Source of the DNA: an uncultured Chloroflexia bacterium
GTDB lineage: Bacteria > Chloroflexota > Limnocylindria > Limnocylindrales > CSP1-4
Length of the DNA stretch: 64,000 nt
Reading direction: 5' to 3'
Assembly: GCA_963729175.1 (NCBI GenBank)
Contig: CAVSMY010000015.1
Coordinates: forward strand, 5,841 to 69,840
A program made the position numbers and the translations under genes. Shown in pieces: positions 10,851-55,175 of this stretch; positions within the stretch are counted from its first letter, which is position 1; each line of letters starts with the position of its first letter. Below the pieces are notes generated by a model that did no database searches, was not told the DNA's origin, and was given only the letters and a program-made list of their open reading frames with translations.

Positions 10851-10925
10851 GTCGGCGGTCGGGTCCCCTGGAACCCCGGCGCTCCTCGTAACGGCCCCGT
10901 ACCGAGCCGGTGATCAGATGGCGGT

Positions 10926-12426: not shown

Positions 12427-12876
12427 GTGGCCAGTCCAGCATCGATCAAGTCGCGCCTCGCCCGCTCCTTCGACCCGGCCGAGCTGCGCCGGATCAAGAA
12501 GCTCTGGATCCAGCACTCGATCGCCGAGGACCGGCGCGACATCGACGGCCTCATCGCGACGCTGTCGGTGACGTGCACGTACGAGATCGTCCCGACCGGC
12601 CAGGTCTGGCACGGCCACGACGGCGCGCGGGTGTTCTACACGGAGCTGTTCGCCGCATTCCCGGACAACGCCTTCGGGCTGACCGAGATCGTCGTCGGGC
12701 CGCAGGGGGTCTTCGAGGTCGCCACCCTGACGGGCACGAACCTCGGGCCGTGGGCCGGCGTCGCGCCATCCGGCTTACCGGTCCGGCTCGAGGTCCTCAT
12801 CCTCTTCCCATGGGACCCGGAGACGGAGCGGTTCAGCGGTGAGCGGATCTGGTTCGATCGCGGCGCGATCGCCTGA
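12427..12876 (+). CDS. SnoaL-like / NTF2-fold protein (ester-cyclase-like)
   Basis: 149 aa, GTG start. The pattern ...DIDGLIATL...Y......G....G..G...FY.ELFAAFPD... is typical of SnoaL-like polyketide-cyclase-fold proteins. Confidence 0.55.
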   Translation: MASPASIKSRLARSFDPAELRRIKKLWIQHSIAEDRRDIDGLIATLSVTCTYEIVPTGQVWHGHDGARVFYTELFAAFPDNAFGLTEIVVGPQGVFEVATLTGTNLGPWAGVAPSGLPVRLEVLILFPWDPETERFSGERIWFDRGAIA

Positions 12877-15495: not shown

Positions 15496-16257
15496 GTGAT
15501 CCGGCGCGAGGGCATCCAGCACGAGGACGGAGAGGACATGCCAGAAGCCACGGGGTCAGAGACACCTTCGGAAGGGCCGCCGGAGGAGACGAGACCGCCC
15601 CGCGACGTTGGGATCGATCCCGAGCATCGCTCGAGGTGGCGAGCGATGCTCCAGGACTCGGGCGATCGCGCGCTGGATCGTCTGTTCGGGATCGAGACCT
15701 CGGGCTGGGTCGGTCACGACCAGCTGGGATTCGACCCCGAAGATGGCACCTACTATCGGCCCTCGAATTGGATCAATCTCGTCGGCGTCTATCGGATGCT
15801 GCGGCAGATGGACATCACGTCTTCCAACGTGTTCGCGGACTTCGGCTGCGGCAAGGGTGTCGTGGTCCTGCTGGCGGGCCGCTTCCGGTTCGGGCGGGTG
15901 ATCGGCATCGATCTCTCCAAGTCGATGATCGATGTCGCCCGTCGGAACGTCGCTCGCCGCACGAAACCCGCCAAGCGGGGCCGGTATCAGCTGGTCCAGA
16001 CCGACGCCGTGGAGTACGCGATCCCCGCCGATCTCGATACCTGTTACTTCTACATGCCGTTCCCGACGCCGATCTACGAGCAGGTGATCGCCAACCTGGC
16101 GGCGTCGGCGGCTGCACATCCACGCGTCATCCGGCTGCTGTTCCTGCATCCGACGCAGCCCGATGCCGAGGTCCCGGAGCGACACGGGTTCCATGAGGTG
16201 AGCCGGATCCGGGGCCTCGTCCTCTATTCCAACGGACCCGCGAGCACGTCGTCCTGA
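15496..16257 (+). CDS. Class I SAM-dependent methyltransferase
   Basis: 253 aa. Motif I VFADFGCGKGVVVLL followed by VIGIDLS. Start uncertain (alternative ATG at about 15538). Confidence 0.7.
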   Translation: MIRREGIQHEDGEDMPEATGSETPSEGPPEETRPPRDVGIDPEHRSRWRAMLQDSGDRALDRLFGIETSGWVGHDQLGFDPEDGTYYRPSNWINLVGVYRMLRQMDITSSNVFADFGCGKGVVVLLAGRFRFGRVIGIDLSKSMIDVARRNVARRTKPAKRGRYQLVQTDAVEYAIPADLDTCYFYMPFPTPIYEQVIANLAASAAAHPRVIRLLFLHPTQPDAEVPERHGFHEVSRIRGLVLYSNGPASTSS

Positions 16258-16260
16258 GGC

Positions 16261-19149
16261 CTACCAGGTCACCAGGCGCCACTTGCCCGGCTCGAGCGCA
16301 TCCGGATCGCCGACCTCGGCGAAGATCGCGACCGCGGTCTTGAGGTGCTCGATCGCCGCCTCCTCGTCGCCGGTCGCGTGACGCAGGTCGGCGAGGCTGT
16401 TCTGGAGCGCCGCTTCCCGATGCCGGTCGCCGATCGAGCGGCACAGGGCCAGCGCTTCGTCGGTCAGGCCGATGGCCCGGGCGATCTCGCCAGCCGCGGC
16501 CAGCGAGCGGGCCAGGTTGTTCAGTGCGGCGACCTGCGCCGGTGCGTCGCCCGCTTCCGCGGCGAGCCGCAGGCTCTGACCGAGGAGGTCGCTCGCGGCC
16601 GACTGGTCGCCTCGCTCGGTCGCGAGGACGCCGGCGACGTTCGCGGCGCGGGCCACGGCATTCGGATCGCCGGACGCCTCCGCGGCGGCCAGGGCCTCCG
16701 CGGCCAGTCGGCGCGCGTCGTCGGCCCGGCCGGCCTGCTGGGCGTTGAGCCCCCGATCGGCGAGGAGGCGAGCCCGATCGGGCCCGGCGCCCTCGTGCTC
16801 GAGAGCGGCGGCGAAGTGGGCGTCCGCAGCGTCTGGGTCGCCACGGCGCTGATGGACGAGCGCGAGCCGGTGCTCGATCTCCCCGAGCCTCGCGGGGCTC
16901 GCGACCGCCGCGGCGGCCTCGAAGTGCTCGATCGCCGGGCCGTACTCTCCGGCCAGCGTCCGCAGATCGCCGAGCGCCGTGTGGATGTCCTCGACGTCGG
17001 GGTGTCCGAGCGCGAGCGCCGCCTCCAGATCGCCCTGGGCCTCGCGGTTGGCGAAGGCCGCTCGAGCCAGCTCGCCCGCCTCGACGAACGCGGCGGCGGC
17101 CTCCGCGTCACGGCCCGCCTCACGCTCGTGTCGGGCGATCCTGGCGATCCGGGCGGAGGACGGCTCGCGCACGTCCCTGGCCGTCCGTCCTCCACCAGCG
17201 CTCGATCGGAGCGCATCGGCCGCCCGTCGATGGAGCAGCCGCAACCGCGCCAGGCTCGTCGACCCGACCGCGACGTCGCGGAGCCGGGCATGGACGAAAT
17301 CGAGGTCGTCGAGACCGCCGGCCACCTCCCGGACGATGCCCCTCCCGACGAGCTCCTCGATCGCGGCGACGGTCTCGTCGTCTGAGCGGCCGCTCGTCGC
17401 CCGGACCGTCTCGGCGTCGAACGATCGTCCGAGGATCGCGCCGGCGGTCGCGACCTGCCGGGCGATCTCTGAGAGGTCCGCCAGGCGCCCGGCGAGCAGG
17501 GAGCGGATGCCCGGCGGGACCGCATCAGCCGGCAGGTCGGACGCACCGAGCTCGACGAGATACAGCGGCAGACCCTCCGCCTCGTCGACGGCGCTCTCGA
17601 GCGCGGCGCTGGTCGGCGGCGCCGTTCGGCGCCAGGCGACGGCCGCGAGCTCACGCGAGGCGACCGGGTCGAGCCGGTCGAGCCGCAGGGTCGTCGCCGA
17701 CCCGATGATCCGGGCGATGAGCGGGGCCGCCCGCTCATCGATGTCCTCTCGCCGGAATGTGATGAGGACGACGACCGGCCGACCAGAGAGCCGGCGCGAG
17801 AGGTACGCCAGGGTCTCGAGGGTCGACTCGTCGGCCCACTGGAGGTCGTCGACCCGAAGCATCCCTGGGGCCTCACCGCCGGCGAGCTCGACGAGCGCCG
17901 TCGTCACCGCCTCGAGCAGTCGATGGAGCGCGAACGGCCCGACCAGGTCCGCGGGTGCCGGCGCGTCGGCCGCGACCTCCGGGAGCAGTCGGGCGAGCTC
18001 GGTCCTGACGCCCGGCCCGAGCCGGTCGGTCCCGGCGGCGGCGATCCCGGCGCGGAGGAGCGCGACGATCGGCCCGAAGCCGATGCCGGCCTCGCCGGCG
18101 TAGGCGACCGCCTCGAGACAGGTCCCGCGCGAGTCTCGCATCTCGCGGACGACCGCGTCCGCCAGCCGCGTTTTGCCGATGCCGGCCTCGCCCTCGATCG
18201 CGATGACGATGCCATCCGCCTCGATGGCCCCGATCGCCGTCCGGAGGTGTGTCAGCTCGGTCGTCCGATCGACCAGCGGGAGCGACGACGATGCAGCGTC
18301 GGGCTCGCGGTCCTCGAGCGGCGGGCGTCCCTGGGGGGCCGACGGCGGTCCTGGCTCGACCTGGAAGGCGCCGTCCCGGATCGCTTCGTAGAGCGCGGTC
18401 GTCTCCGGCAACGGCGGCACGCCGAGCTCGCGGTCGAGCGTCCGCACGCAGTCCCGGTACTGGCGGACGGCTGCCGCCGGCTCGCCGGCCCTGGCATGCG
18501 CCTCCATGAGCAGCCGATGGGCCGGCTCGTGGAGTGGATCGAGCTCGAGCCAGCGGCGGCCGACCGTGATCGCCGCACCCGCATCCCCCGCCGAGAGCTC
18601 GAGCCTGGCGAGCCGCTCGAGCGCTCCCGCCAGCTCCCGTCGGTAGTCCTCCCGCTCGGCCAGCAGCCACTCATCGAACGGCTCGCTGTCACGGAGGGCG
18701 AAGCCGTCCATGAACGTCCCGCGATCGAGCACGGCGGCGGCCCGGAGCGCCGCGCGGCAGCGGCGGCACGACTCGCCCGAGTCATGGCGATGGGCGCGCG
18801 CCCGGGCGAGTGCCGCGCGGAAGGCGCCGAGATCGGAGGCGACGACGCCCGGATCGATCGCGACCGCCGATCGGTCGATCGTCAGCCGACCCGGGCCGAG
18901 GGCGGCATTGAGGACCGACAGGGTGCGCCGGAGGGCGCCGCGCGCGGAGGTCTCATCGGCCTCCGGCCAGAGAAGGGCGGCGAGGACATCCCGGCTCGCC
19001 GGGCGACCCGACGCCACCAGGTACGCGAGGAGGGCGACGGCCTTGCGGGTGTCGACATCGAGCGGCGCGCCCTCGACCCGGACCGAGACCGGGCCGAGAA
19101 GCTGGACATCGACCGGTGGCGGCGGCACGAGCGCAACGGTACACGCCAC
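16261..19149 (-). CDS. SARP/AfsR-type regulator: OmpR-like wHTH + BTAD + AAA/NB-ARC ATPase + TPR
   Basis: 962 aa. VQLLGPVSVRVEG...RKAVALLAYL (wHTH); FDEWLLAEREDYRREL...HEPAHRLLMEAHARAGEPAAAVRQYRDC (BTAD); Walker A IEGEAGIGKTRL; C-terminal TPR-like repeats. Confidence 0.85.
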   Translation of the reverse strand: MACTVALVPPPPVDVQLLGPVSVRVEGAPLDVDTRKAVALLAYLVASGRPASRDVLAALLWPEADETSARGALRRTLSVLNAALGPGRLTIDRSAVAIDPGVVASDLGAFRAALARARAHRHDSGESCRRCRAALRAAAVLDRGTFMDGFALRDSEPFDEWLLAEREDYRRELAGALERLARLELSAGDAGAAITVGRRWLELDPLHEPAHRLLMEAHARAGEPAAAVRQYRDCVRTLDRELGVPPLPETTALYEAIRDGAFQVEPGPPSAPQGRPPLEDREPDAASSSLPLVDRTTELTHLRTAIGAIEADGIVIAIEGEAGIGKTRLADAVVREMRDSRGTCLEAVAYAGEAGIGFGPIVALLRAGIAAAGTDRLGPGVRTELARLLPEVAADAPAPADLVGPFALHRLLEAVTTALVELAGGEAPGMLRVDDLQWADESTLETLAYLSRRLSGRPVVVLITFRREDIDERAAPLIARIIGSATTLRLDRLDPVASRELAAVAWRRTAPPTSAALESAVDEAEGLPLYLVELGASDLPADAVPPGIRSLLAGRLADLSEIARQVATAGAILGRSFDAETVRATSGRSDDETVAAIEELVGRGIVREVAGGLDDLDFVHARLRDVAVGSTSLARLRLLHRRAADALRSSAGGGRTARDVREPSSARIARIARHEREAGRDAEAAAAFVEAGELARAAFANREAQGDLEAALALGHPDVEDIHTALGDLRTLAGEYGPAIEHFEAAAAVASPARLGEIEHRLALVHQRRGDPDAADAHFAAALEHEGAGPDRARLLADRGLNAQQAGRADDARRLAAEALAAAEASGDPNAVARAANVAGVLATERGDQSAASDLLGQSLRLAAEAGDAPAQVAALNNLARSLAAAGEIARAIGLTDEALALCRSIGDRHREAALQNSLADLRHATGDEEAAIEHLKTAVAIFAEVGDPDALEPGKWRLVTW

Positions 19150-19199
19150 GCGGTTCGTCCCGTAACGTTGTCGAGACGAGCGACCTCGACGATGGCGCC

Positions 19200-20429
19200 A
19201 TGATCGGAGGTTGTGTGACGACCGACGCCCGGACCGACCGAGCGACCGATCCGGTCGAGCGCGCCGGACGACTGATGCGGATCGCCATCGTGGTCCTGTT
19301 CCTTGCCGGCTTGGCCGTCTGCCTCTGGGCCGTCGAGCCGGTGGGGGTCGTCATGTACCTCGCCTACGCCGGCGTCGGCGGCCTCGTCGCCTATCGACGG
19401 CCGTCCCATCCGGTCGGCTGGTTGCTCATCCTGGCCGGCTGGGGCGCCACCGGGATCTCGCGGGTCGACCTCCCGGTGGACGCCTTGGTGGCCGGCGGAC
19501 TGACGCCGCAGCAGGAGCTCGCGGCGTGGCTGAACGGGAACGCCTGGACGCTCGTCATCGGCGCCCTGTTCGGGGTGACGCTCGTGTTCCCGTCCGGGAC
19601 GCTGCCGGGTGGTCGGGCCAGGACCCTCGCCCTGCTCGCATCGGCGGCGATGGTCCTGGCGGGCGTCCTCGTCACGATCGCCCCGACGATCAACGTCACG
19701 TCGATGTCCGGCCAGCCGGTGGACATCCCCAACCCGGTGGCCGTGGCTCCGGAAGCGGCGATCTGGGGGGTGCTGACGCCGACCACGGTGCTGTACCCAG
19801 CGATGTTCATGCTCCTCGCTGCCGGGATCGTGTCGCTGCTCCTGCGAGCCCGACGCTCGACGGGCCTCGAACGGCTCCAATACACCTGGCTCCTGGCAGC
19901 GATCTGCCTCGTCGTCATCGGATCGGCGGTCTGGGTGATCCTCACGTTCTTCGTCGCCCGCTACGAGCTCGTCTGGATCCCCGTCCTGCTCACCTACCCC
20001 ACCGTCCCGATCGCCATCGCCGTCGCGGTCCTCCGGTATCGCCTGTTCGAGATCGATCGGATCATCAGCCGGACGATCGGCTGGGCCATCGTGACCCTTG
20101 GCCTCGCTACTGTCTTCGTCGCTGTGGTCGTCGGACTGCAGACCGTCCTGACGCCCTGGACGTCGGGCGACACATTGGCCGTCGCTGCGTCGACGCTCCT
20201 CGTCTTCGGCCTTTTCCAGCCGCTCCGACGACGGGTCCAGAGAGCCGTCGACCGCCGCTTCGACCGAGCCCGAGTCGATGCCGAGGCGACGGTCGAGGCG
20301 CTCGCGGCGCGGCTGCGCGAGGACGTGGCCCTCGATGCCGTCCGCCGGGAGGTCCTGCTCGCGACCGACCAGGCGCTCCGGCCGACGGCCACGGGGATGT
20401 GGCTCCGCGGTAGCGGTGGGTCGACATGA
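19200..20429 (+). CDS. Family-A polytopic membrane protein, paralog A3
   Basis: Motifs: YRRPSHPVGWLLILAG, FPSGTLPGGRAR, PNPVAV, RLQYTW, VLRYRLFEIDRIISRTIGWAIVT, AVDRRFDRARVDAE. Start uncertain (ATG at 19200 or 19275; the ORF opens at 19116). Divergent from the SARP gene. Confidence 0.85.
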   Translation: MIGGCVTTDARTDRATDPVERAGRLMRIAIVVLFLAGLAVCLWAVEPVGVVMYLAYAGVGGLVAYRRPSHPVGWLLILAGWGATGISRVDLPVDALVAGGLTPQQELAAWLNGNAWTLVIGALFGVTLVFPSGTLPGGRARTLALLASAAMVLAGVLVTIAPTINVTSMSGQPVDIPNPVAVAPEAAIWGVLTPTTVLYPAMFMLLAAGIVSLLLRARRSTGLERLQYTWLLAAICLVVIGSAVWVILTFFVARYELVWIPVLLTYPTVPIAIAVAVLRYRLFEIDRIISRTIGWAIVTLGLATVFVAVVVGLQTVLTPWTSGDTLAVAASTLLVFGLFQPLRRRVQRAVDRRFDRARVDAEATVEALAARLREDVALDAVRREVLLATDQALRPTATGMWLRGSGGST

Positions 20430-21619
20430 CTTTCGGCGGGACCGCACCGAGGCGGCGGAGGTGGCCGTGGGCGGTCGCGGTCATCGACGTCGTGGCGTTG
20501 ATCCTCGGTCAGGCGACCCTCCCCACGGACTCCGACGGAGGGGCGTTCATCCTCTTCGTCACGGCCATCGCCTCGTTCGCAGGAGTCGGAGCCCTGCTGA
20601 TGACGCGGGTTCCCGGCAACATCCTCGGGCCACTCCTGCTGCTCTGCGGGACGCTCATGGCCGGGGTCACCGCGCTCGGCGGGTATGCGACGCTCGGGGC
20701 CTCGGCATCGCCGATGTGGCCGGGCACCGGTGTGGCAGCCAGCGCGAGCGAGGCCCTCTACATCGTCCCCATCGGCGTGGCGTTCGCGTTCGTGCCGCTC
20801 GTCTTCCCCAGCGGTCGTCTGCTGTCGCCGCGGTGGCGCTGGGTCGTCACCCTCGACATCGCGTTGCTCGCCACGAGCGTCGTCTCGAACCTGATCCGAC
20901 CGGGGCTCGTCGGCGGGGTGCCGGTGGAGAACCCGCTCGCGATCCCAGCGCTCGAGCCGTTGGTGTCCGCCCTCGACCTCCCGAGTTCGCTCCTGGCGGT
21001 CGTCGCCTTCGGTGCGGCCGCGACCGCCCTCGCGATCCGATACCGAGGCGGGACGGTGGTGGTTCGACAGCAGGTCAAGTGGCTTCTTGCGGCCGCGACG
21101 GTGGCAGCCGTCGCCTTCCCGATCTCATTCGTGGTGGAGGACGAGACGCTCAGCACCGCGACCTTCTTCGTGGGCTTCCTCGCCTTCGTCGCATTGCCTC
21201 TCGCGATCGGTGTCGCGGTGCTGCGGTATCGGCTGTTCGAGATCGATCGGGTCATCAGCAGGACGTTGTCCTGGGCGATCGTCACCGGGCTGCTCGCAGC
21301 GGTCTTCGCCGTCGGCGTGGTCGGGCTCCAGGCGGTGCTCGTGACCTTCACCTCGGGCGACACGCTCGCGGTGGCGGCATCCACGCTCGTCGTCTTCGGC
21401 CTGTTCCAGCCCATCCGACGGCGGGTCCAGGCGACGGTCGACCGGCGCTTCGACCGGGCCAAGGTCGACGCCGAGCACACCGTCGAAGCACTGGCGTCAC
21501 GGCTCCGCGACGACGTCGACCTCGGCGCGGTGCGATCCGAGGTGATCGAGGCGGTGGATGCCGCTCTCCACCCGGCATCGACCGGGCTGTGGCTGCGCGG
21601 CTCGGAGGATGCCCGGTGA
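20426..21619 (+). CDS. Family-A polytopic membrane protein, paralog A4
   Basis: 397 aa, ATGA overlap with A3. Motifs: TRVPGNILGPLLLLCG, FPSGRLLSPRWR, ENPLAI, QQVKW, VLRYRLFEIDRVISRTLSWAIVT, TVDRRFDRAKVDAE. Confidence 0.9.
   Translation: MTFGGTAPRRRRWPWAVAVIDVVALILGQATLPTDSDGGAFILFVTAIASFAGVGALLMTRVPGNILGPLLLLCGTLMAGVTALGGYATLGASASPMWPGTGVAASASEALYIVPIGVAFAFVPLVFPSGRLLSPRWRWVVTLDIALLATSVVSNLIRPGLVGGVPVENPLAIPALEPLVSALDLPSSLLAVVAFGAAATALAIRYRGGTVVVRQQVKWLLAAATVAAVAFPISFVVEDETLSTATFFVGFLAFVALPLAIGVAVLRYRLFEIDRVISRTLSWAIVTGLLAAVFAVGVVGLQAVLVTFTSGDTLAVAASTLVVFGLFQPIRRRVQATVDRRFDRAKVDAEHTVEALASRLRDDVDLGAVRSEVIEAVDAALHPASTGLWLRGSEDAR
21443..21597 (+). repeat. 155-bp perfect direct repeat, copy 1 (3' end of paralog A4)
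   Basis: Base-for-base identical to 22653-22807 on direct comparison of the printed sequence. The flanks diverge immediately. Confidence 0.9.
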
Positions 21620-22829
21620 TAGAGCGACCGGCGAGCGGGCCGGGTCGGTCGTCGGTTCGTCCACGCCCGCAGGAGTGGCTGGTTCGGCTGGGCGCGTTCG
21701 CGGGGATCGTCCTCCCGCTGGTCACGATCGCCGTCGAGGCGCTGTCTGGCTGGCCGGCCGGGGGCTCGCACCTGGCCTACCTGCCCGTCGTGCTTGCATT
21801 CGTGGGCGTCGGCTGGCTCCTCTGCGAGCGCAGGCCGGGCAATGCCGTCGGCTCGCTCCTTCTCACCTTCGGGGCGCTGTTCGGCCTGTTCCTGCCGTTC
21901 GACCTGTATCTGGCCTCGGATCCAGCAGGCCTGGCCGCGACGCTCTCGGCGATCTACCTCAGCTCGCTCGACGTGCCGCTCTTCACGCTGCTCGCGCTGA
22001 CCCTGGTCGTGTTCCCGGACGGCCGGCCGCTGAGCCCGCGGTGGCGGATCACGTACGTCGTCGCGGCGTTCGCTTCGGGGCTCGCCGTCGGCGGCTACCT
22101 CATCAGCAGCGCCCCGATCCCGATCTACCCGTCGTACACGAGCCCGGTCGGCATCCCCGACGTGGATGGCCTGCTGTTGGTCGAGTCCGCCTACGTCGTG
22201 ATGCTCTGTCTCCTCATCGCCGGGGCGGCGTCGCTGTTCCTGCGCTGGCACCGCGGGTCGCAGACGGTCCGGGCTCAGGTGAAGTGGGTCGTCGGCGCGG
22301 CAATCATCGCCGCGGGGAGCGAGCTCCTCAATGTCGCGACGTTCGATCCCGCGGAACCGAACTCCCCGACCGCCATCGCGTCCTCGGTCGCGATCGGCCT
22401 CGTCCCGCTCTCGATCGGCATCGCCGTCCTCCGCTATCGGCTGTACGAGATCGACCGGATCATCAGCCGGACCATCGTCCTGGGCGATCGTCACCGGGGC
22501 CCTGGCACTCACGTTCATCGCCGTGCGTCGTGGGGCTTCAGACGGTCCTGGCCACCTTCACCGCCGGGAATACCCTGGCGGTGGCAGCCTCGACCCTCGT
22601 CGTGTTCGGCCTCTTCCAGCCGGTCCGACGCCGGGTCCAGAAGGCCGTGGATCGGCGCTTCGACCGGGCCAAGGTCGACGCCGAGCACACCGTCGAAGCA
22701 CTGGCGTCACGGCTCCGCGACGACGTCGACCTCGGCGCGGTGCGATCCGAGGTGATCGAGGCGGTGGATGCCGCTCTCCACCCGGCATCGACCGGGCTGT
22801 GGCTGCGAGGCAGTGACCGCCCGACATGA
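21616..22829 (+). CDS. Family-A polytopic membrane protein, paralog A5; two apparent +1 frameshifts (about 22476 and 22527)
   Basis: GTGA overlap with A4. Motifs: CERRPGNAVGSLLLTFG, FPDGRPLSPRWR, AQVKW, VLRYRLYEIDRIISRTI. Then SWAIVTGALALTFIAV in the next frame, then VVGLQTVLATF...AVDRRFDRAKVDAE in the third. Confidence 0.8.
22653..22807 (+). repeat. 155-bp perfect direct repeat, copy 2 (3' end of paralog A5)
   Basis: Identical to 21443-21597, offset 1210 bp. Encodes RRFDRAKVDAEHTVEALASRLRDDVDLGAVRSEVIEAVDAALHPASTGLWLR in both genes. Confidence 0.9.
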
Positions 22830-22866
22830 CGTCCTGGTGGATGTGCGACGGCGTATCTTCCGTCCG

Positions 22867-24075
22867 ATGACGGCGGGGGTGACGAGGGTGGATCGATCCA
22901 GCCGGACGAGCTGGCCGCTACGGCTCGTGACGCTCGGACTGACGATCGTCGGGCTCGTCGCCGGCATCGCGGGGGCCCTCATCCCAGGGGGCCTGGGGCC
23001 GGAGGGTCCCATCTTCGCGGCGGTCGGGGTCGCCTTCCTTGGGGTCGGACTGCTGATCGTGGAGCGGTCCGGCGCCACCAGCGTCGGCTGGACATCGTGG
23101 TTGATCGGCGCCCTGGTCGCCGGCTTCGCGGCTGCCGATGTCTACGTCCGGATCACGCCTCCGCTTCCGAGTCAGCAGGACGTCGCATGGCTTATCAGCA
23201 TCATCGACGGCCCGTTCTTCCTCCTCATCGCTCTCCTGTTCCTCAGGATCCCCGATGGCCATCTGCCCTCGCCGCGGTGGCGGATCCTCGTGGCCGTCAT
23301 GGTCATCCTGGCCACAGCGACGGTCATCCGATCCGCGACGACGGCAGGCCCGCTGCCCTACTACCCGTGGATCACGAACCCGTTCGGGATCGCCGGTGTC
23401 GAGGGGTCGGTGATCGCAAGCCTGCCCTACGGTCTGCTCGTCGGATGCGTGGTCATCGCGGCGTTGTCGCTTTTCGTCCGCTGGCGCAAGGCGGACGCGA
23501 TCGAGCGAGCCCAGCTCAAGTGGATCGTGGCCGCGGCTGCCCTGGTCGGCATCGCGATGCTCGGGTACGGGATCGAGGCGGGGCCGGGTGAGTACTCCCA
23601 GCTCGGCGACATCGCGATCGGTGTGGCGTTGCTGCTCTTCCCGATCGCGGTCGGGATCGCGATCCTCCGCTATCGCCTGTACGAGATCGACCGGCTCATC
23701 AGCCGGACGATCTCCTGGGCCATCGTGACGGCGACTCTTGCGGCGGTCTTCGTCGTGGTCGTCGTCGGGCTGCAGGCGCTCCTGGCCACGTTCACCGCGG
23801 CGAACACGCTCGCGGTCGCCGCCTCGACGCTCGTCGTGTTCGGGCTATTCCAGCCGGTCCGGCGCAGGGTCCAGGCGGCCGTTGACCGGCGGTTCGATCG
23901 GGCCAAGGTCGACGCCGAGCAGACCGTCGACGCCCTGGCCTCCCGGCTTCGGGACGACGTCGACCTCGAGGCCGTCCGGGCCGAGATCATGGACGCGGTC
24001 GACGGTGCCCTGCACCCGGCGGGGAGCGGGCTGTGGCTGCGGGTCCCGGATCGTCCCAGTGAGGGTGCGGGGTGA
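22867..24075 (+). CDS. Family-A polytopic membrane protein, paralog A6
   Basis: Motifs: VERSGATSVGWTSWLIG, IPDGHLPSPRWR, TNPFGI, AQLKW, ILRYRLYEIDRLISRTISWAIVT, AVDRRFDRAKVDAE. Start uncertain (ATG 22867, or GTG at 22837/22843). Confidence 0.85.
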   Translation: MTAGVTRVDRSSRTSWPLRLVTLGLTIVGLVAGIAGALIPGGLGPEGPIFAAVGVAFLGVGLLIVERSGATSVGWTSWLIGALVAGFAAADVYVRITPPLPSQQDVAWLISIIDGPFFLLIALLFLRIPDGHLPSPRWRILVAVMVILATATVIRSATTAGPLPYYPWITNPFGIAGVEGSVIASLPYGLLVGCVVIAALSLFVRWRKADAIERAQLKWIVAAAALVGIAMLGYGIEAGPGEYSQLGDIAIGVALLLFPIAVGIAILRYRLYEIDRLISRTISWAIVTATLAAVFVVVVVGLQALLATFTAANTLAVAASTLVVFGLFQPVRRRVQAAVDRRFDRAKVDAEQTVDALASRLRDDVDLEAVRAEIMDAVDGALHPAGSGLWLRVPDRPSEGAG

Positions 24076-24530
24076 GCTGGCACATCGCGGTCGAGCTCGT
24101 CCACGTCGTCGCCGCGATCGTCTTCGCCGCCGGCTACATCAGCACGAACGTCCTGACCGAGCTGGCTCGCGAGACCGACGAAGCACCGACGCGCCGCGTC
24201 GCCCTCGGACTTTCCGGGGTGTTCGATCAATTCCTCGTCATCCCGTTCGGGACCCTCGCCGGACTGTCGGGTCTGGTGCTCTTCCCGGTGCTCGGCTACC
24301 CGATCACGAGCCAGTGGGTGTGGCTTTCGACGCTCCTGTATCTCGGCGTGATCGGCCTTGGGATCACCGTCTGGCGAGCCCGCGGCCTGCGGATCGAGGC
24401 GGCCCTCGCCGACGACGACGATGCGGCGGTGGTGGCCCTGTTGCGCGATCAGCGGTACGTCGCGCTGTCGCGCGGCGAGAATGTCGTCGTCTTCCTCATC
24501 GTCGTGCTCATGATCGTCAGACCGTCGTAA
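24072..24530 (+). CDS. Small 4-TM integral membrane protein (DUF2269-like by recollection)
   Basis: 152 aa, GTGA overlap with A6. Four hydrophobic segments (HVVAAIVFAAGY, LVIPFGTLAGLSGLVLF, WVWLSTLLYLGVIGLGI, VVVFLIVVLMIV). Confidence 0.5.
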   Translation: MSWHIAVELVHVVAAIVFAAGYISTNVLTELARETDEAPTRRVALGLSGVFDQFLVIPFGTLAGLSGLVLFPVLGYPITSQWVWLSTLLYLGVIGLGITVWRARGLRIEAALADDDDAAVVALLRDQRYVALSRGENVVVFLIVVLMIVRPS

Positions 24531-24564
24531 CGGTTCCCGGACGGAGGGTCGCGAGACTGCTGCC

Positions 24565-26178
24565 ATGACGTTCATCCAGTCGCTCCGACGGACGGTGGGA
24601 CGCGGCGCACGTGACGAGGCGCCGCCGACGCCGGATACACCCCATCCCGCGGTGGCCGACGAGCCCGCGAGCATCGCCGTGGAGATCGCGCCGACCGACC
24701 CGCTCTTCGCCGTCCTCGAGTCGGCCGTCGGCGTCGTCGATGTCGATCGCATCGACCTCGACTCACCGGCGGTGCGGGAGCTCCGGGCCGCCGGTGTCCG
24801 GGTCGTCGTCCCGCTCGTGACCCAGGGAGAGTTGATCGGTGCCCTGTACCTCGGGCCCCGTCTGTCCGACCAGGACTACTCGACCGACGACCGTCGGCTG
24901 CTCACGACCCTCGCCGCCCAGGCCGCCCCGGCGATCCGGGTCGCCCAGCTCGTCGCCGAGCAGGCCGTCGAGATCCAGGCCCGTGAGCGACTGGACCAGG
25001 AGCTCCGCCTGGCGACATTGATCCAGCAGCAGTTCCTGCCCCACGCGCTGCCCGACCTGCCCGACTGGCAGGTGGCCGCCTACTACGGCCCGGCCCGGGC
25101 GGTCGGCGGTGACTTCTACGACTTCATCGAGCTGCCCGACGGCCGGATCGGGGTCGTCATCGGCGACGTGACCGACAAGGGCGTCCCTGCGGCACTGCTC
25201 ATGGCCCGGACGCACTCGATCCTCCGCGGCGAGGCACCGAGGCTTGTCGAGCCGGGAGCGGTCCTCGCGTCGGCCAACGAGGCGCTCTGCCAGGAGACCC
25301 CGGCGAACATGTTCGTCACCTGCCTGTACGCGGTGCTCGACCCGGCGACCGGTCGGCTGGTCTTCGCGAACGCCGGTCACAACCTGCCCTATGTCCGGGG
25401 CACCGACGGCGTGACCGAGCTCCGGGCGACCGGGATGCCCCTGGGCCTGATGCCCGGGATGGTGTACGACGAGGTCGTCGCGACGATCGGCGCCGGCGAG
25501 ACCGTGCTGCTGTCCTCGGACGGGTTCGTCGAGGCCCACGACCCCGGGGGCCAGATGTACGGCTTCCCGCGCCTGAAGGATGCCTTCGCGACGGAGCAGG
25601 CCGGGAGCGACACGATCGACGGGCTGCTCGAGGACCTGCGGACCTTCACCGGCAGGGACTGGGAGCAGGAGGACGACATCACCCTCGTCGCCCTGCGGCG
25701 ATCGGCCGAGACCGGGCGGACCTTCATGTTCGGCCATCCCGAGGAGACGCCGAGCGTCCTGGTCGACACCCTGATCGCCGGTGAGATCGGCAACGAGCGC
25801 CAGGCGATGGAGATGGTCGCCGCGGCCGTCGCCCCGCTCGGGCTCCCCGCCGATCGGCTCGAACGACTCAAGACCGCGGTGGCCGAGACCACGATGAACG
25901 CGATCGAATACGGCAGCCAGGGTCGAGCCGACGTGCCCGTCCGGCTCCAGGTCTTCGCCACCGACGAGGCCGTGACGGTCCGGGTGACCGACCGGGCCCT
26001 CGGCGGCACGATCCCCGACGAGCCGGAGACCCCGGACCTCGAGGCGAAGCTCGCCGGGCTCCAGAAGGCCCGCGGGTGGGGCCTCTTCCTGATCGAGCAG
26101 ATGGTCGACCGAGTGACGGTCGAACCGACCGAGGACGGCCAGGCCGTCGTCCTCCTGATGCGCAGAGGAGATGCCTGA
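24565..26178 (+). CDS. Fused GAF-like / PP2C (SpoIIE-type) Ser phosphatase / RsbW-like HATPase protein
   Basis: 537 aa. End of a GAF domain (QGELIGALYLGPR...DDRRLLTTLAAQAAPAI). PP2C motifs (GGDFYDF, GVVIGDVTDKGVPAALLM, NAGHNLPY, LSSDGFVE, DDITLVAL). C-terminal anti-sigma-kinase-like ATPase (TAVAETTMNAIEYG...ARGWGLFLIEQMVD). Confidence 0.85.
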   Translation: MTFIQSLRRTVGRGARDEAPPTPDTPHPAVADEPASIAVEIAPTDPLFAVLESAVGVVDVDRIDLDSPAVRELRAAGVRVVVPLVTQGELIGALYLGPRLSDQDYSTDDRRLLTTLAAQAAPAIRVAQLVAEQAVEIQARERLDQELRLATLIQQQFLPHALPDLPDWQVAAYYGPARAVGGDFYDFIELPDGRIGVVIGDVTDKGVPAALLMARTHSILRGEAPRLVEPGAVLASANEALCQETPANMFVTCLYAVLDPATGRLVFANAGHNLPYVRGTDGVTELRATGMPLGLMPGMVYDEVVATIGAGETVLLSSDGFVEAHDPGGQMYGFPRLKDAFATEQAGSDTIDGLLEDLRTFTGRDWEQEDDITLVALRRSAETGRTFMFGHPEETPSVLVDTLIAGEIGNERQAMEMVAAAVAPLGLPADRLERLKTAVAETTMNAIEYGSQGRADVPVRLQVFATDEAVTVRVTDRALGGTIPDEPETPDLEAKLAGLQKARGWGLFLIEQMVDRVTVEPTEDGQAVVLLMRRGDA

Positions 26179-26531
26179 TGGCTGGCGAGCAGCTCGACGT
26201 GCGGGTCGAGGCCGGCCCGCAGACCTCCCGGATCGTGATGTCCGGGCGGCTCGACCGCGAGGGCGACGCGGCGATGGCCGATGGCTACAGCCGGGCGGAG
26301 GCGTCCGGTGCGACGACCGTCGTGCTCGACTTCACGGCCGTCGACTACATCAACAGCACCGGGATCGCCCTGGTCGTCCGGTTGCTCGGGGAGGCCCGAC
26401 GCGACCATCGCACGGTCCGCGCGACGGGTCTGAGCCCGCACTACCGGGAGATCTTCCGGATCACCCGCCTGTCGGATTTCATGATCATCGAGGACGAGGC
26501 GACGACCGTCGCAGAGCCGGCCGTGTCCTGA
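26178..26531 (+). CDS. STAS-domain anti-sigma-factor antagonist (RsbV/SpoIIAA-like)
   Basis: 117 aa. The ATG shares one base with the upstream stop (TGATG). VVLDFTAVDYINSTGIALVV contains the conserved phosphorylatable Ser/Thr context. The C-terminus LSPHYREIFRITRL is STAS-like. Confidence 0.8.
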   Translation: MAGEQLDVRVEAGPQTSRIVMSGRLDREGDAAMADGYSRAEASGATTVVLDFTAVDYINSTGIALVVRLLGEARRDHRTVRATGLSPHYREIFRITRLSDFMIIEDEATTVAEPAVS

Positions 26532-27754
26532 TGCCGGTGGCCCACGCGGTGACACCGGCGCGACTCGGCGCGCTCGCCCTGTGGTCCGTCGCAGTGCTAG
26601 CCGGACTGACGCTCAGCGCTGCGTTCCTCCAGAACCAGGAGTGGCTCGGGACCGATCTCGCCTTCGGCCTGTTCGTCCTGGTCGTCGTCGCCGATTCGAT
26701 GGTCTTCGCGTCGATGGGCGCTCTGATCATCTTCCGGCGTCCGACGAACCACGTCGGCTGGCTCCTGGCCGGGATCGGGCCGCTCCTGAGCATGACGTTC
26801 ACTGGCTATGTGATCGGCGCGGTCAGAACGGAGAACCTCGGGCCCGATGATGTGGTGGCCGGACTCCTGAGCTTGCTCGGCGGGATCGGGTTCTACTCGT
26901 TGTTCCTCATGCTGGCCCTGACGGCGATCCTCTTTCCGGACGGTCGGCTTCCGTCGCGACGGTGGCGTCTCCCGGTTGCGCTGGGGGCCGCCCCACTCGT
27001 CGTCGCCGTGCCCATCGCGCTGGTCAAGCCCGGGCCGGTCGACGTCGGGCTGGCGAACAACCCGCTGGGGATCCAGCTCGACGCGATGGCGCAGATCCGT
27101 CTCGTCACGGAGCCGCTCGCCACCATCGCCATTCCGGCGCTCCTCGCCCTCGGCGCCACGGCCGTGCTCGTTCGGTTTCGACACGCGGACGGAGACACTC
27201 GCGAGCAGTTGAAATGGCTCCTTGGGGCAGTCGCCGTCGTCGTGGTGCTGGTCGCGCTGAGCTTTTCGCAGCCGAGCGAGGAGCTCGCACCGACGGCCGT
27301 CCTTGCGGTCGCGAGCCTCTCGCTGCTCCCGATCTCGATCGGTGTGGCCGTCCTCCGGTATCGGCTGTACGAGATCGATCGCCTGGTCAGCCGGACGGTC
27401 AGCTGGTCGATCGTTACGGTCGTCCTGCTGGCGACCTTCGGGGTCGGGCTGCTGGCCCTCCAGGCGCTCCTCGCGGGAGTCACCCAGGGCCAGACGATCG
27501 CCGTCGCGGCCTCGACACTGATCGCCCTGGCGGCCTTCCAGCCGGTCCGCCGGCGGGTCCAGCGGGCGGTCGACCGGCGGTTCGACCGGACCCGCTACGA
27601 CGGCGACCGGGTGGTCGCGGCGTTCGCCGCTCGGATGCGAGACCAGCTCGATCTGGCCCTCCTGACGGGCGAGATCGGGAGGGTCGCCACGGAGACGGTC
27701 CGCCCGACGCGCGCGAGCGTCTGGATCCGGGCGGCCCGGGCCGACGGTCGATGA
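26531..27754 (+). CDS. Family-A polytopic membrane protein, paralog A7
   Basis: TGATG junction with the STAS gene. Motifs: FRRPTNHVGWLLAGIG, FPDGRLPSRRWR, NNPLGI, EQLKW, VLRYRLYEIDRLVSRTVSWSIVT, AVDRRFDRTRYDGD. Confidence 0.9.
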   Translation: MPVAHAVTPARLGALALWSVAVLAGLTLSAAFLQNQEWLGTDLAFGLFVLVVVADSMVFASMGALIIFRRPTNHVGWLLAGIGPLLSMTFTGYVIGAVRTENLGPDDVVAGLLSLLGGIGFYSLFLMLALTAILFPDGRLPSRRWRLPVALGAAPLVVAVPIALVKPGPVDVGLANNPLGIQLDAMAQIRLVTEPLATIAIPALLALGATAVLVRFRHADGDTREQLKWLLGAVAVVVVLVALSFSQPSEELAPTAVLAVASLSLLPISIGVAVLRYRLYEIDRLVSRTVSWSIVTVVLLATFGVGLLALQALLAGVTQGQTIAVAASTLIALAAFQPVRRRVQRAVDRRFDRTRYDGDRVVAAFAARMRDQLDLALLTGEIGRVATETVRPTRASVWIRAARADGR

Positions 27755-28992
27755 CCGAGCGAGATCTCCGGACGACGGGACCCGGCGAGCGCGTCGCTGC
27801 CGCGCTGCTCTGGATCCTCGCGGCGGTGGCAAGCTCGGCCCTCGTCGGGGCGGTCCTCATCGGCGGTGCCGAGCAGTTCGGTCCGCCCGACGATCCGGCC
27901 ACGATCGCCTTCGTCCTCTTTCTCGCCCTTGCGTCGATGGCTTTCGCGACCGCCGGGATCCTCGTGGTCGTCCGTCGACCCGGGAACATCATCGGCTGGC
28001 TCATGCTCGCGATCGGCCCCTTGATCTCGGGAGCGTTCACCGGCTTCGCGCTCGGAGCCCTCTCCACCGCCGCCCTCGGTCCCGACGATCTGCGTGCCGG
28101 CTTCCTCAGCATGCTCGGCGTGACGACGCTCCTGCCGGCGCTCGCCCTCGTCGGGATCCTCACCCTCGTCTATCCGACGGGACACTTCCTGTCGCGACGG
28201 TGGGCCTGGCTGACGGCGATCGTCGCCGCGCCGATCGTGCTGGATGAGCTCCTCATCGTCATCCGGCCGGGCCAGCTCGACCCCACGCTGGCCCGCAACC
28301 CGCTCGGATTCGGGACATTCCTGCCGATGGAGCAGGCCGTCATCTTCGATGGGATCGCGTATCCGGCGACGTTCCTCCTCGTGCTCCTCGGGTTCCTGTC
28401 GATGCTGGTGCGACTGCGTGGGGCCGACGCGGTCACCCGGCAGCAGCTGAAGTGGTTCCTTGCCGCGGTCGCGGTGATCTTCGTCACGGGTGTCGCGAGC
28501 AGCCTCGGCGAGTCGAACAGCAACGACGTCATCGATCTGCTGGCGGTCGCCAGCTATGCCCTGCTGCCGACTGCGGTCTGCATCGCGATCCTGCGCTATC
28601 GGCTGTATGAGATCGACCGACTGGTCAGTCGGACCGTCAGCTGGGCGATCGTGACGGCCGTCCTGGTGGCGACGTTCGCGGCCGGCCTGCTGGCCCTCCA
28701 GACGATCCTTGCCGACGTCACCCAGGGCGACACGATCGCCGTGGCGGCCTCGACGCTCATCGCCCTGGCCGTCTTCCAGCCCGTCCGCCGGCGGGTCCAG
28801 CGGGCGGTCGACCGCCGGTTCGACCGGAGCCGCTACGACGCGGAGCGGGTGATCGATGACTTCGGCACGCGCCTGCGTGACCAGCTCGACCTGTCGCTTC
28901 TCAGGAGCGAGGTCGGGCGGGTCGCGACCGAGACCGTCCGTCCGACGCGGGCGAGCGTCTGGATCCGGCCGATCCGGCCGGGCGGCCGATGA
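27751..28992 (+). CDS. Family-A polytopic membrane protein, paralog A8
   Basis: ATGA overlap with A7. Motifs: VRRPGNIIGWLMLAIG, YPTGHFLSRRWA, RNPLGF, QQLKW, ILRYRLYEIDRLVSRTVSWAIVT, AVDRRFDRSRYDAE. Confidence 0.9.
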   Translation: MTERDLRTTGPGERVAAALLWILAAVASSALVGAVLIGGAEQFGPPDDPATIAFVLFLALASMAFATAGILVVVRRPGNIIGWLMLAIGPLISGAFTGFALGALSTAALGPDDLRAGFLSMLGVTTLLPALALVGILTLVYPTGHFLSRRWAWLTAIVAAPIVLDELLIVIRPGQLDPTLARNPLGFGTFLPMEQAVIFDGIAYPATFLLVLLGFLSMLVRLRGADAVTRQQLKWFLAAVAVIFVTGVASSLGESNSNDVIDLLAVASYALLPTAVCIAILRYRLYEIDRLVSRTVSWAIVTAVLVATFAAGLLALQTILADVTQGDTIAVAASTLIALAVFQPVRRRVQRAVDRRFDRSRYDAERVIDDFGTRLRDQLDLSLLRSEVGRVATETVRPTRASVWIRPIRPGGR

Positions 28993-29095
28993 GCGGTCCG
29001 GGCGCGCGGCGGGCGCACCGTCGTAACGATGACCGGACACCCGCGCGGTACACCATGCGCACACTGACGAGCAAGCGACGGATCGGAGGGGCGAG

Positions 29096-29440
29096 ATGAC
29101 AGCGACGACGGTCGAAGTGGAGCCGATCGACGGGACGGCGATCCTGCACATCCGCGGCGAGGTGACCGCGGCGTCCGAGGGGGCACTGATGGACGCCTAC
29201 GGCGCCGCGACCGCGGCTGGCGCGACGACGATCGTCCTCGACTTCAGCAACCTCGAGTACATGAACAGCGGTGGCATCGGGCTGATGGTCACGCTCCTCA
29301 TCCGGGTCCAGCGAGCGGGCCAGAAGCTCATGGCCGCGGGGCTGTCGGACCACTACCGCCAGATCATGTCGCTGACCCGCCTCGACGAGGCGATCGCGAT
29401 CCACGACACACCCGCCTCGGCGCTGGCCGCGACGGTCTGA
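29096..29440 (+). CDS. STAS-domain anti-sigma-factor antagonist, second copy
   Basis: 114 aa, GGAGGGG SD. IVLDFSNLEYMNSGGIGLMV and LSDHYRQIMSLTRL parallel the first STAS protein. Confidence 0.8.
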   Translation: MTATTVEVEPIDGTAILHIRGEVTAASEGALMDAYGAATAAGATTIVLDFSNLEYMNSGGIGLMVTLLIRVQRAGQKLMAAGLSDHYRQIMSLTRLDEAIAIHDTPASALAATV

Positions 29441-29450
29441 GGACACGACG

Positions 29451-30236
29451 ATGGCCACTTCCCCGACCCCACCGATCGACACGACGCCGTCGACAGACGC
29501 TTCGCCTGCGAAGCCGGTCGATGCCGCTCCCGCCGCGGCCAAGGGCTCCGGCTGGGCCTCTCCGGTCGACCGCCTGACGGTCACGACCGCTCCGAAGGGG
29601 GCGATGCCGGTGACCGTCCAGGGCCGGCGGCTGGCGGGTCCCCTTCAGGGCTTCGGGCAGCTGTGGCAGAAGACGTTCCGCATCCGCCTCGACGGCCAGG
29701 CCGACCCGGCCGCGGTCGTCGCCCACTGGAAGGCCCACTTCCCGGAGTTCTGGCCGAAGGGCAACACGTTCTACGCTCCGCTCGAGGGCATCAAGCCCGG
29801 CGAGGTCGCTCTCCTGAAGGTCACCGCCGCCGGCCCGGTGAAGCTCAACAGCGGCGTCATGGTCATCTACGCCGACGACACGTCGTTCTCGCTCATGACC
29901 CCGGAGGGCCACACGTTGGCGGCCTGGATCACCTTCAGCGCCGAGCGCGATGCCGCGACCGGCGACGTGGTGGCCCAGACGCAGGCGCTGGAGCGGCCGT
30001 CCGATCCGTTCTACGAGATGGCGTACCTGCTCGGTGCGAACGAGAAGAACAGCCGGTTCTGGGAGGCCACGCTCGAGAACCTCGCCCGATCCCTCGGGGT
30101 CGAGGGCCGCTGCGAGCGCACGATCGTCCGGGTCGATCCGAAGCGCCAGTGGCGCCACGCCGGGAACGTGGTCCACAACGCGAACATCCGTGGCACCTTC
30201 TGGACGATCACCCACCCGCGGTCCTGGCGGCGCTGA
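29451..30236 (+). CDS. Conserved-looking hypothetical protein, no domain recognised
   Basis: 261-aa ORF 10 nt after the STAS gene. Non-repetitive, balanced composition (e.g. GFGQLWQKTFRIRL, HWKAHFPEFWPKGNTFYAPLEGIKPGEV). Low-complexity Pro/Thr/Ala N-terminus. Confidence 0.6.
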   Translation: MATSPTPPIDTTPSTDASPAKPVDAAPAAAKGSGWASPVDRLTVTTAPKGAMPVTVQGRRLAGPLQGFGQLWQKTFRIRLDGQADPAAVVAHWKAHFPEFWPKGNTFYAPLEGIKPGEVALLKVTAAGPVKLNSGVMVIYADDTSFSLMTPEGHTLAAWITFSAERDAATGDVVAQTQALERPSDPFYEMAYLLGANEKNSRFWEATLENLARSLGVEGRCERTIVRVDPKRQWRHAGNVVHNANIRGTFWTITHPRSWRR

Positions 30237-30278
30237 CCCGCGCCACCCGACCGATCACCTGCTGACACCGACACACGC

Positions 30279-31716: not shown

Positions 31717-31732
31717 ACCCAGGGACGAGCGA

Positions 31733-36860: not shown

Positions 36861-36869
36861 TCGCGCATG

Positions 36870-51789: not shown

Positions 51790-51791
51790 CG

Positions 51792-55085: not shown

Positions 55086-55175
55086 TCGAGGAGCCCCGGG
55101 CGACCGGACCGGATCCCTGCCGCCCACGCGATTGACAGGCTAGAGAGACTGTCGGAACCGATGCAGGAGGAGGGG

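Follow-up and report, generated by a model that had tools for sequence, protein, structure and literature searches.

The present study analyzes a 64,000-nucleotide stretch of contig CAVSMY010000015.1 from an uncultured Chloroflexia bacterium (hereafter the window, whose own coordinates are used throughout), and within it a group of genes in which a fused PP2C phosphatase-kinase, two small STAS proteins and an array of related membrane proteins, family A, lie opposite a large SARP-type regulator. The grouping is genuine: the same cassette of genes is conserved in two phyla, Chloroflexota and Actinomycetota. The regulator is on the minus strand (16261-19128) and is an AfsR-type large SARP protein in which Pfam recognizes a winged helix-turn-helix (wHTH)/BTAD region, an AAA_16 NOD and TPR repeats. 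Opposite it, eleven plus-strand genes run between 19200 and 30236 in the same order as was given by an earlier inspection of the letters made without database searches (the sequence-only reading). They begin with four family-A genes: A3 (19200-20429), a ten-transmembrane (10-TM) protein found as a paralogue by tblastn and weakly matching HisKA_7TM; A4 (20426-21619), identified by paralogue comparison; A5 (21616-22829), identified by frame and paralogue comparison; and A6 (22867-24075, listed at 435 aa, with an uncertain start at 22768, 22813 or 22867). These are followed by a gene for a small 4-TM DUF2269 protein (24072-24530, Pfam E 1.4e-13), a gene for a bifunctional protein with partial GAF, PP2C (SpoIIE) and HATPase_c_2 domains (24565-26178, Pfam), STAS-a (26178-26531, 117 aa), the tblastn paralogues A7 (26531-27754) and A8 (27751-28992), STAS-b (29096-29440, 114 aa; both STAS by Pfam and NCBIfam), and a gene for a 261-aa protein of the DUF1990 family (29451-30236; Pfam, AlphaFold2 model and Foldseek). 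The G+C content of the window is 70-74%, and coding frames were picked by third-position G+C. Lengths of five window products equal those called in a public protein collection, a cluster look-up gave no name for seven window proteins, and an Rfam scan of the whole window gave no match.

Junctions between these genes were also as first read, overlapping as ATGA at 20426, GTGA at 21616 and 24072, TGATG at 26176-26180 and 26529-26533, and ATGA at 27751, with the other junctions between 19200 and 30236 being gaps of 37, 34, 103 and 10 nt. The proposed beginning of the unit at 19200 stands but its end at 30236 does not, since a plus-strand gene for a FAD-dependent oxidoreductase of the amine-oxidase/phytoene-desaturase superfamily comes next (30279-31736; Pfam NAD_binding_8 and Amino_oxidase). 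Similarly, A3-A8 had been counted correctly within the interval, but by tblastn the window holds ten family-A paralogues rather than eight. Satellite genes A1 (12839-14101) and A2 (14098-15343) occupy 12839-15343 on the plus strand, so that the SARP gene separates them from the main array, and A9 (about 33706-34948) and A10 (34945-36210) occupy 33706-36210, also on the plus strand. One member that had been taken as intact, A5, carries two overlooked frameshifts, with its frame passing from 1 to 2 to 0 within about 60 nt near 22476-22534 (two +1 changes); A2 and A9 have one frameshift each, near 14847 and 34270. Splitting across frames is found as well in unrelated genes of the window, i.e. the second PmbA/TldD, IU_nuc_hydro and SpoIIIAA-PTPase-R3H genes (9219-12394 and 36186-38232), the last of these being a single 687-713-aa protein in two related loci (L080 and L081). 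Because unrelated genes are split in the same way, the frameshifts in A2, A5 and A9 are probably assembly indels rather than decay specific to family A, and the idea that these three are pseudogenes was dropped for the same reason.

Conservation was assessed by scanning one genome per species with a family-A alignment, which yielded 78 loci, and annotating these by tblastn with the window proteins; the loci examined, the 80 that match A6 best, sample the cassette-linked subfamily. The PP2C fusion, STAS and DUF1990 genes occur together in 45 of the 50 loci with at least 17 kb of sequence, and the SARP gene is also present in 43 of those 45 cassette-bearing loci, the exceptions (L014 and L042) being loci in which A genes fill the upstream flank. 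A search anchored on DUF1990 instead of family A found the full cassette in three of three loci. The sequence-only reading had set out in advance that its hypothesis should be judged by whether A genes are enriched near PP2C and STAS genes in other genomes, and from both sides of the cassette they are. The usual order is the SARP gene on the minus strand, then, divergently, a variable number of A genes, the PP2C-kinase gene, STAS-a, STAS-b, DUF1990 and the flavoprotein gene. There are 1 to 8 near-full-length A genes per locus, with arrays of 1-10 overall. In six loci the SARP gene is divergent directly from the PP2C gene, with the A array positioned 3' of DUF1990, and in several others A genes are found between STAS-b and DUF1990. 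The window has its own variant of this, in that A7 and A8 separate two STAS genes that canonically adjoin elsewhere. The DUF2269 gene was found among the loci only in the window and its closest relative, L001, and is therefore an accessory, lineage-specific insertion outside the conserved core.

The nearest relatives are Chloroflexota, Limnocylindria-like metagenome-assembled genomes (MAGs), and not Streptomyces. Carriers are mostly Chloroflexota MAGs labelled Chloroflexia or Limnocylindrales, together with Actinomycetota (Nocardioides sp. GXQ0305, Nocardioidaceae, Gaiella, Thermoleophilia, Rubrobacteraceae and Acidimicrobiia) and a few bins with other labels that are possibly binning errors. 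Nocardioides sp. GXQ0305 (L061) has no MAG label and may be a cultured isolate. Synteny with the window extends beyond the cassette in locus L081, where amine oxidase, glyoxalase, SpoIIIAA-R3H and SNO/SNZ genes are shared, and a conserved chromosomal neighbourhood of this kind suggests vertical inheritance. A SnoaL-like gene (ketosteroid-isomerase fold) flanks the SARP gene on its outer side in 13 of the 50 loci, and in the window (12427-12876, plus strand) such a gene overlaps the start of A1; it is another small hydrophobic-ligand fold associated with the cassette.

Alignment of the intergenic stretches that separate the SARP gene from the first gene downstream revealed a shared promoter-like motif, CGTAACG(T/A)TnnCnG(G/A)ACG-N9-nAnnnT, in 47 of 51 SARP-proximal spacers. 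The element consists of imperfect heptamer direct repeats, GTAACGT and nG[G/A]ACGn, 11 bp apart, of which the first overlaps the -35 position and the second ends 8 bp upstream of the nAnnnT hexamer at the -10. This geometry agrees with the published rule for SARP operators, in which repeats are 11 or 22 bp apart and the 3' repeat is 8 bp from the -10 (PMC10936776). The box thus resembles the operators of large SARPs in its 11-bp direct repeats, its 8-bp distance to a weak -10 and its overlap with the -35 (PMC10936776). Neither large SARPs nor this operator geometry is new. A 37-nt position weight matrix (PWM) trained on 46 SARP-proximal sites and scanned over 1.29 Mb of related loci gave 138 matches on the cassette strand versus 1 on the opposite strand. 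Of the 138, 57 are immediately upstream of the PP2C gene and independent of the training set, and further sites precede lone A genes at other places in these genomes. At 87 of 147 sites the distance from the -10 to the start of a long open reading frame (ORF) is 6-10 nt, as expected of leaderless mRNAs. No promoter was recognized in 16000-31000 by a generic sigma-70 scan, and terminator-like matches there did not exceed chance; the promoter signal emerged solely from comparison of orthologous spacers.

Within the window are four copies of the box (19159, 24524, 29020, which is weak, and 33664), all intergenic and all on the plus strand. The first, P1 (19159-19195), reads CGTAACGTTgtCgAGACG followed after 9 nt by the -10-like hexamer GACGAT; it matches the pattern exactly (PWM 34.3), and the A3 ATG is 6 nt beyond the hexamer. 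P2 (24524-24560) reads CGTAACGGTTCCCGGACG and then GAGACT, with the PP2C ATG again 6 nt after the -10-like hexamer (PWM 27.2); this is the position occupied in 57 related loci. P2 also overlaps the stop codon of the DUF2269 gene, the TAA at 24528-24530 being inside the CGTAACG repeat, which means that this insertion was grafted precisely onto a promoter already in place. Upstream of STAS-b is P3 (29020-29056), CGTAACGATGACCGGACA, which is box-like with one mismatch and has a PWM score of 13.7, below the training range. P4 (33664-33700), CGTAACGCTCCCGAGACG and then GACGAT, lies upstream of A9 and A10 (PWM 26.6). Although contiguity of the genes was confirmed, the copies of the same type of motif inside the array, at 24524 and more weakly at 29020, make it unlikely that the region is transcribed as the single coupled 11-kb operon first proposed, and an obligatory 11-kb transcript was not adopted. 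At least two promoters of this type, and probably three, lie inside the array, and the region is better seen as a regulon with three or more transcription units of one type. Control by the SARP, the other part of the original hypothesis, is strongly supported in silico by the conserved SARP-type operator/promoter in those 47 of 51 spacers. We also considered reading the motif as a promoter for an extracytoplasmic function (ECF) sigma factor with GTAAC as the -35, and rejected this: a second conserved block is just 11 nt downstream, the conserved downstream positions nAnnnT are unlike an ECF -10, and an ECF sigma factor is not conserved nearby.

In other genomes, boxes were also seen before genes that do not belong to the cassette (L007 4693, L067 2011, L012 7846, L055 16401, L026 12110, L048 10642, L074 17996, L079 1661, and L033 17140 on the minus strand). 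The apparent products, judged by translated ORFs only, include secreted nucleoside-hydrolase-like lipoproteins, 145-156-aa possibly SRPBCC-like proteins, 119-139-aa membrane proteins, an ABC ATPase and a secreted 236-aa protein. It is possible that these are extra members of the regulon.

For the SARP protein itself, matches to BTAD (2.9e-23), AAA_16 (5.2e-18) and TPR_12 (7.4e-18) were found by Pfam, and Walker A GEAGIGKT and Walker B VDDLQWAD can be read in the sequence. It shares with AfsR and other large SARPs the domain order of BTAD, AAA_16 with Walker A, and TPR. Residues 8-332 match the NCBIfam AfsR model (E 5.6e-20), but with 70.9 bits against an equivalog cut-off of 1430 the protein is not an AfsR orthologue by that cut-off. 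Unlike AfsR, SARPs of the window type are mainly from Chloroflexota, and the repeat (TAACG/GRACG) and the regulon differ. AfsR is phosphorylated by an AfsK-type Hanks kinase; the cassette SARP is linked to a Ser phosphatase/kinase-STAS module. The gene is not beside a biosynthetic gene cluster in the window, where its neighbours are housekeeping or unknown genes. The domains and divergent orientation described by the sequence-only reading were borne out, but the start at 19149 was not, since alignment of orthologous intergenic regions probably moves it to a GTG at 19128. In most Chloroflexota loci that alignment also shows a second element, read as GCG(T/C)AACGGTAC or GCGTAACGGTAC, which precedes the main box by 29 nt and in the window occupies 19131-19142 on the minus strand. 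Its complement, TACCGT, is 6-8 nt ahead of the start codon of the SARP gene and is a putative -10 for a leaderless SARP mRNA; on that basis translation probably starts at GTG 19128 and the divergent spacer is probably 71 bp. With the -10 at TACCGT, the main box would overlap the -35 region of the SARP gene's own promoter. The second element is possibly a third SARP site.

The fused protein encoded behind P2 has, as had been proposed from its letters, a partial GAF, a SpoIIE-type PP2C (E 1.7e-49) and an HATPase_c_2 domain (E 1.1e-19). Its metal-binding motifs GGDFYD, GDVxDKG, SDG and EDDIT are kept in 45 orthologues, and the N-box ExxMNAxEYG and G2 box RGWGLFLI of the kinase are conserved in orthologues as well. 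In the G1 box, Chloroflexota orthologues have DRALSG and those of Actinomycetota DxGG, versus an expected D-x-G-x-G. The HATPase_c_2 domain has sub-threshold matches to RsbA, SpoIIAB and RsbW models. Both STAS proteins are single-domain and above the Pfam STAS cut-off; for the NCBIfam antagonist superfamily, with a cut-off of 53.45 bits, STAS-b passes with 59 and STAS-a is below with 43.7. The candidate phospho-acceptor Ser, found in DYINSTG of STAS-a and in EYMNSGG of STAS-b, is shared by at least 95% of 40 orthologues, upholding the residues proposed for phosphorylation. Pfam scans of the cassette found no sigma gene, also as predicted, and the sole sigma gene found in the window belongs to an ECF sigma (Sigma70_r2/r4) and RskA pair 17 kb away (1314-2842, minus strand), homologues of this sigma being present in 4 of 82 related loci.

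As in RsbU/RsbV/RsbW and SpoIIE/SpoIIAA/SpoIIAB, three biochemical parts are present, a phosphatase, a putative kinase and STAS antagonists, with the phosphatase and phospho-acceptor motifs and the N- and G2 boxes kept; the cassette differs from both in that phosphatase and kinase are fused, there are two antagonists, and no cognate sigma is linked. The fusion, which the sequence-only reading set against classical partner switching, is real but is not in itself unusual, since HsbR of Pseudomonas and CrsR of Shewanella are fused in the same way (PMC6482189). In those systems (HsbR/HsbA and CrsR/CrsA) a PP2C and an anti-sigma-type Ser kinase similarly share a single polypeptide, the small STAS antagonist has a conserved Ser, and the sigma gene lies outside the operon (PMC6482189), so that a fused PP2C-kinase without a linked sigma is already known and is not itself novel. 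The cassette differs from these proteobacterial systems in being found in Chloroflexota and Actinomycetota, in having two STAS proteins rather than one, and in being fixed beside a SARP-NOD-TPR regulator, 10-TM arrays, DUF1990 and a flavoprotein. Its input domain also differs, as Pfam shows a partial GAF at the N-terminus of the fusion and no receiver domain. Neither STAS protein, at 114-117 aa and with a single domain, is a stressosome-type RsbR with an N-terminal sensor.

The membrane proteins of family A form a very large group. A6 has more than 3,900 homologues, mostly of about 390 aa and either without a name or called "hypothetical protein", and the C-terminal module of the family falls into 21,547 clusters at 50% identity (E <=1e-3). 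An AlphaFold model of A6 (mean predicted local distance difference test, pLDDT, 79.8) has ten TM helices and a long C-terminal helix. HisKA_7TM (PF16927) is matched by 6 of 17 family-A members, with a best E of 3.6e-9, and A3 in the window scores 20.2 bits against a cut-off of 28.6 (E 5.9e-4); a Pfam scan of A4, A6, A7 and A8 gave no match. Family A resembles HisKA_7TM sensor domains in its multi-TM bundle, but unlike HisKA_7TM kinases it has two extra TM helices and no catalytic part, the HisKA/HATPase core being absent by domain searches from the window A proteins and from long homologues. It differs further in its tail, FQPxRRRVQxxVDRRFDRxxxD...WLR, and in the tandem arrangement of its genes, with 1-10 to an array. 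Across the seven undisrupted paralogues identity is 27% in the membrane part and 57% in the C-terminal module (LRYRLYEIDR ... FQPxRRRVQxxVDRRFDR ... WLR). Invariant residues are mostly Arg, Asp, Trp and Pro, and by the model and the positive-inside rule these would be cytoplasmic; given the Arg-rich conserved loops and the 10-TM model, N- and C-termini are both likely to be cytoplasmic. Several long homologues match the A module twice, suggesting tandem-A read-throughs, and one has a PDZ domain. Foldseek matches of the A model were not used as evidence, being weak and of a generic 7TM/G-protein-coupled-receptor kind (E >=0.03, query-normalised TM-score about 0.35). Within the array, the 3' ends of A4 and A5 are near-identical DNA (21558-21602 and 22768-22812), with the same out-of-frame peptide, MPLSTRHRPGCGC, at both, and A5 and A6 share 82% identity in the C-terminal module against 39% in the membrane part; together these suggest recent duplication or gene conversion of the tail.

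The last two genes of the cassette add a possible small-molecule component. The 261-aa protein that the sequence-only reading had left unassigned matches DUF1990 (PF09348) with 27.6 bits against a Pfam cut-off of 23, and many of its homologues carry precomputed PF09348 matches. It is the most conserved cassette protein, with homologues 55-79% identical. Its modelled core (AlphaFold2 and Foldseek) has the START/Bet v1 (SRPBCC) fold, and the top Foldseek matches are PYL abscisic-acid receptors, some of them solved with PP2Cs (E 1.2e-5, target-normalised TM-score 0.5-0.6, identity 16-19%), although non-PYL SRPBCC proteins score nearly equally and identities overall are 9-19%. A PDB sequence search with the DUF1990 profile gave no match. 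The plant PYR/PYL/RCAR-PP2C module is similar in that the cassette, too, encodes a START-fold protein alongside a PP2C, but this likeness is an analogy, since DUF1990 has no detectable sequence homology to PYL, the fold is generic and the cassette PP2C is of SpoIIE type. The N-terminal tail (29451-29660, residues 1-70) is modelled as disordered (pLDDT <50) and yet has invariant residues at W35, A36, L42, V56, G58, G63, P64 and Q66-G69, continuing at W72-K74, with P38, R41 and R60 nearly invariant. Conserved residues in a segment modelled as disordered suggest a docking motif, i.e. a short linear motif or a segment that would fold on partner binding. The flavoprotein gene follows DUF1990 after a 42-nt gap in the window. 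In about 43 of 55 loci, actinobacterial ones included, it is likewise the next gene 3' of DUF1990, read in the same direction and 30-200 nt away, and it is a conserved last gene of the cassette. It matches known families in its FAD-binding N-terminus only, the nearest names, CrtO, CrtI and HpnE, being all far below cut-offs.

The best explanation of the whole, which we regard as about evenly balanced between right and wrong, is that this is an AfsR-type regulon in which a partner switch feeds the SARP and not a sigma factor. We infer the wiring among the cassette proteins as follows. The SARP would bind the boxes and activate mostly leaderless transcripts, probably including its own. The GAF-PP2C-HATPase_c_2 protein would set Ser phosphorylation of both STAS proteins, as in RsbU/V/W or HsbR/HsbA, and the output of the switch would be the co-inherited SARP, with a STAS protein or the DUF1990 protein acting on its NOD-TPR sensor. 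The A proteins would be kinase-less 10-TM intramembrane sensors of HisKA_7TM type, whose diversified membrane parts might read different hydrophobic or membrane cues while the conserved cytoplasmic tails dock onto a switch that all of them share. A hydrophobic small molecule may be bound or modified by the SRPBCC protein and the flavoprotein, which could be a physiological output or a feedback ligand. A stronger version, which is a long shot, is that the cassette is a complete, self-contained pathway in which arrays of kinase-less 7TM-type receptors and a START-fold receptor gate the PP2C/kinase, the START-fold receptor in a PYL-like manner, and the STAS substrates serve as the protein ligand, long sought, that switches on an NLR-like SARP; the end point of partner switching would then be a STAND regulator and not a sigma factor.

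Several points weigh against this explanation. First, the predicted binding of the box by the SARP is deduced from co-inheritance and geometry, and the heptamer boundaries that yield a distance of "8 bp" are partly arbitrary. Secondly, kinase activity is uncertain, because the Chloroflexota G1 box is D-R-A-L-S-G rather than D-x-G-x-G; ATP use is plausible. Kinase domains of the anti-sigma type commonly act on sigma factors whose genes are not linked to theirs, as CrsR does on RpoS (PMC6482189), and the one in the cassette may do the same. For the membrane proteins, the A module was not seen joined to a kinase, STAS or PP2C domain among best hits and long homologues, the box on the A genes themselves fits a regulon target as well as a sensor, and more distant family members, beyond the 80 best A6 matches, may occur in other contexts.

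An alternative, which is rather unlikely, is that the A proteins are output of the regulon, membrane-protective or transport proteins that are induced, with the signal entering through the GAF, the SRPBCC protein or the SARP TPR. This would account for the SARP-box promoter on every A array and on lone A genes, for copy numbers of 1 to 8 or more that resemble expansions of stress effectors, and for the further small proteins, membrane or secreted, whose genes follow the box at certain loci. It would not account for a membrane domain of HisKA_7TM sensor type or for invariant Arg, Asp, Trp and Pro that appear to be cytoplasmic and are not a typical catalytic or transport set; a variable membrane part joined to a conserved cytoplasmic tail is rather the pattern of a receptor family.

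It is also possible, though unlikely, that the cassette is a classical partner switch whose true target is an unlinked sigma or anti-sigma factor, with the SARP, A, DUF1990 and flavoprotein genes being co-regulated neighbours. The C-terminal anti-sigma-type HATPase_c_2 domain with its RsbA, SpoIIAB and RsbW matches is consistent with this, as is the precedent of fused CrsR and HsbR, which target RpoS, a sigma factor not linked to the switch genes (PMC6482189). Against it, 43 of 45 cassette loci, drawn from two phyla, have kept the SARP together with the switch, one SARP-type promoter is common to all cassette units, and no sigma gene was conserved across 82 loci.

A circuit built on a small molecule, in which the SRPBCC protein and flavoprotein make, carry or destroy a hydrophobic signal that is sensed by A or by the PP2C with PYL-like gating, is improbable. 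Consistent with it are the status of DUF1990 as the most conserved cassette protein, its START-fold model with PYL receptors as top matches, and the CrtI/amine-oxidase-like flavoprotein that follows it in about 43 of 55 loci; however, START folds are generic, with near-equal scores for non-PYL SRPBCC proteins at 9-19% identity, and similarity of the flavoprotein is restricted to its FAD-binding N-terminus. That the locus is an anti-phage or conflict system around a STAND NTPase, as the NLR-like NOD-TPR architecture of the SARP and the variable number of A genes might suggest, is scarcely credible given the DNA-binding SARP domain with its matching promoter box, a conserved chromosomal neighbourhood (SNO/SNZ, SpoIIIAA-R3H) suggesting vertical inheritance, and only a generic TPR match by PADLOC (E 4.4e-4).

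Large AfsR-like SARP regulators are numerous, and the activating signals and targets of most of them are unknown (PMC10936776; bioRxiv 10.64898/2026.09.02.748808). Here a SARP is tied to defined signalling proteins and a recognisable operator, which provides candidate inputs and a reporter promoter. No link between a SARP and a partner switch was found in the literature searched, nor was any description of the cassette, the A family or the CGTAACG box. The proposed wiring would add a non-sigma output to partner switching, give a role to a very large membrane family that has no Pfam family of its own, and describe a major regulon in Limnocylindria-type Chloroflexota, known here from metagenome assemblies only. 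Interest in the cassette rests on its wide distribution, the ready reporter promoter and the possibility of a cultured carrier, Nocardioides sp. GXQ0305, which would make experiments feasible.

Two other features of the window may be mentioned. At its edge is a gene for a GAF-GGDEF diguanylate cyclase (275-1273, plus strand). Farther along, at 48561-58440 on the plus strand, are four large genes in a row, encoding a 417-aa DUF6923-repeat protein and then three solute-binding proteins (SBP) of family 5 with 618, 1099 and 1057 aa, of which the 1099- and 1057-aa proteins have long N-terminal extensions with DUF6923 repeats, an architecture unusual for SBPs.

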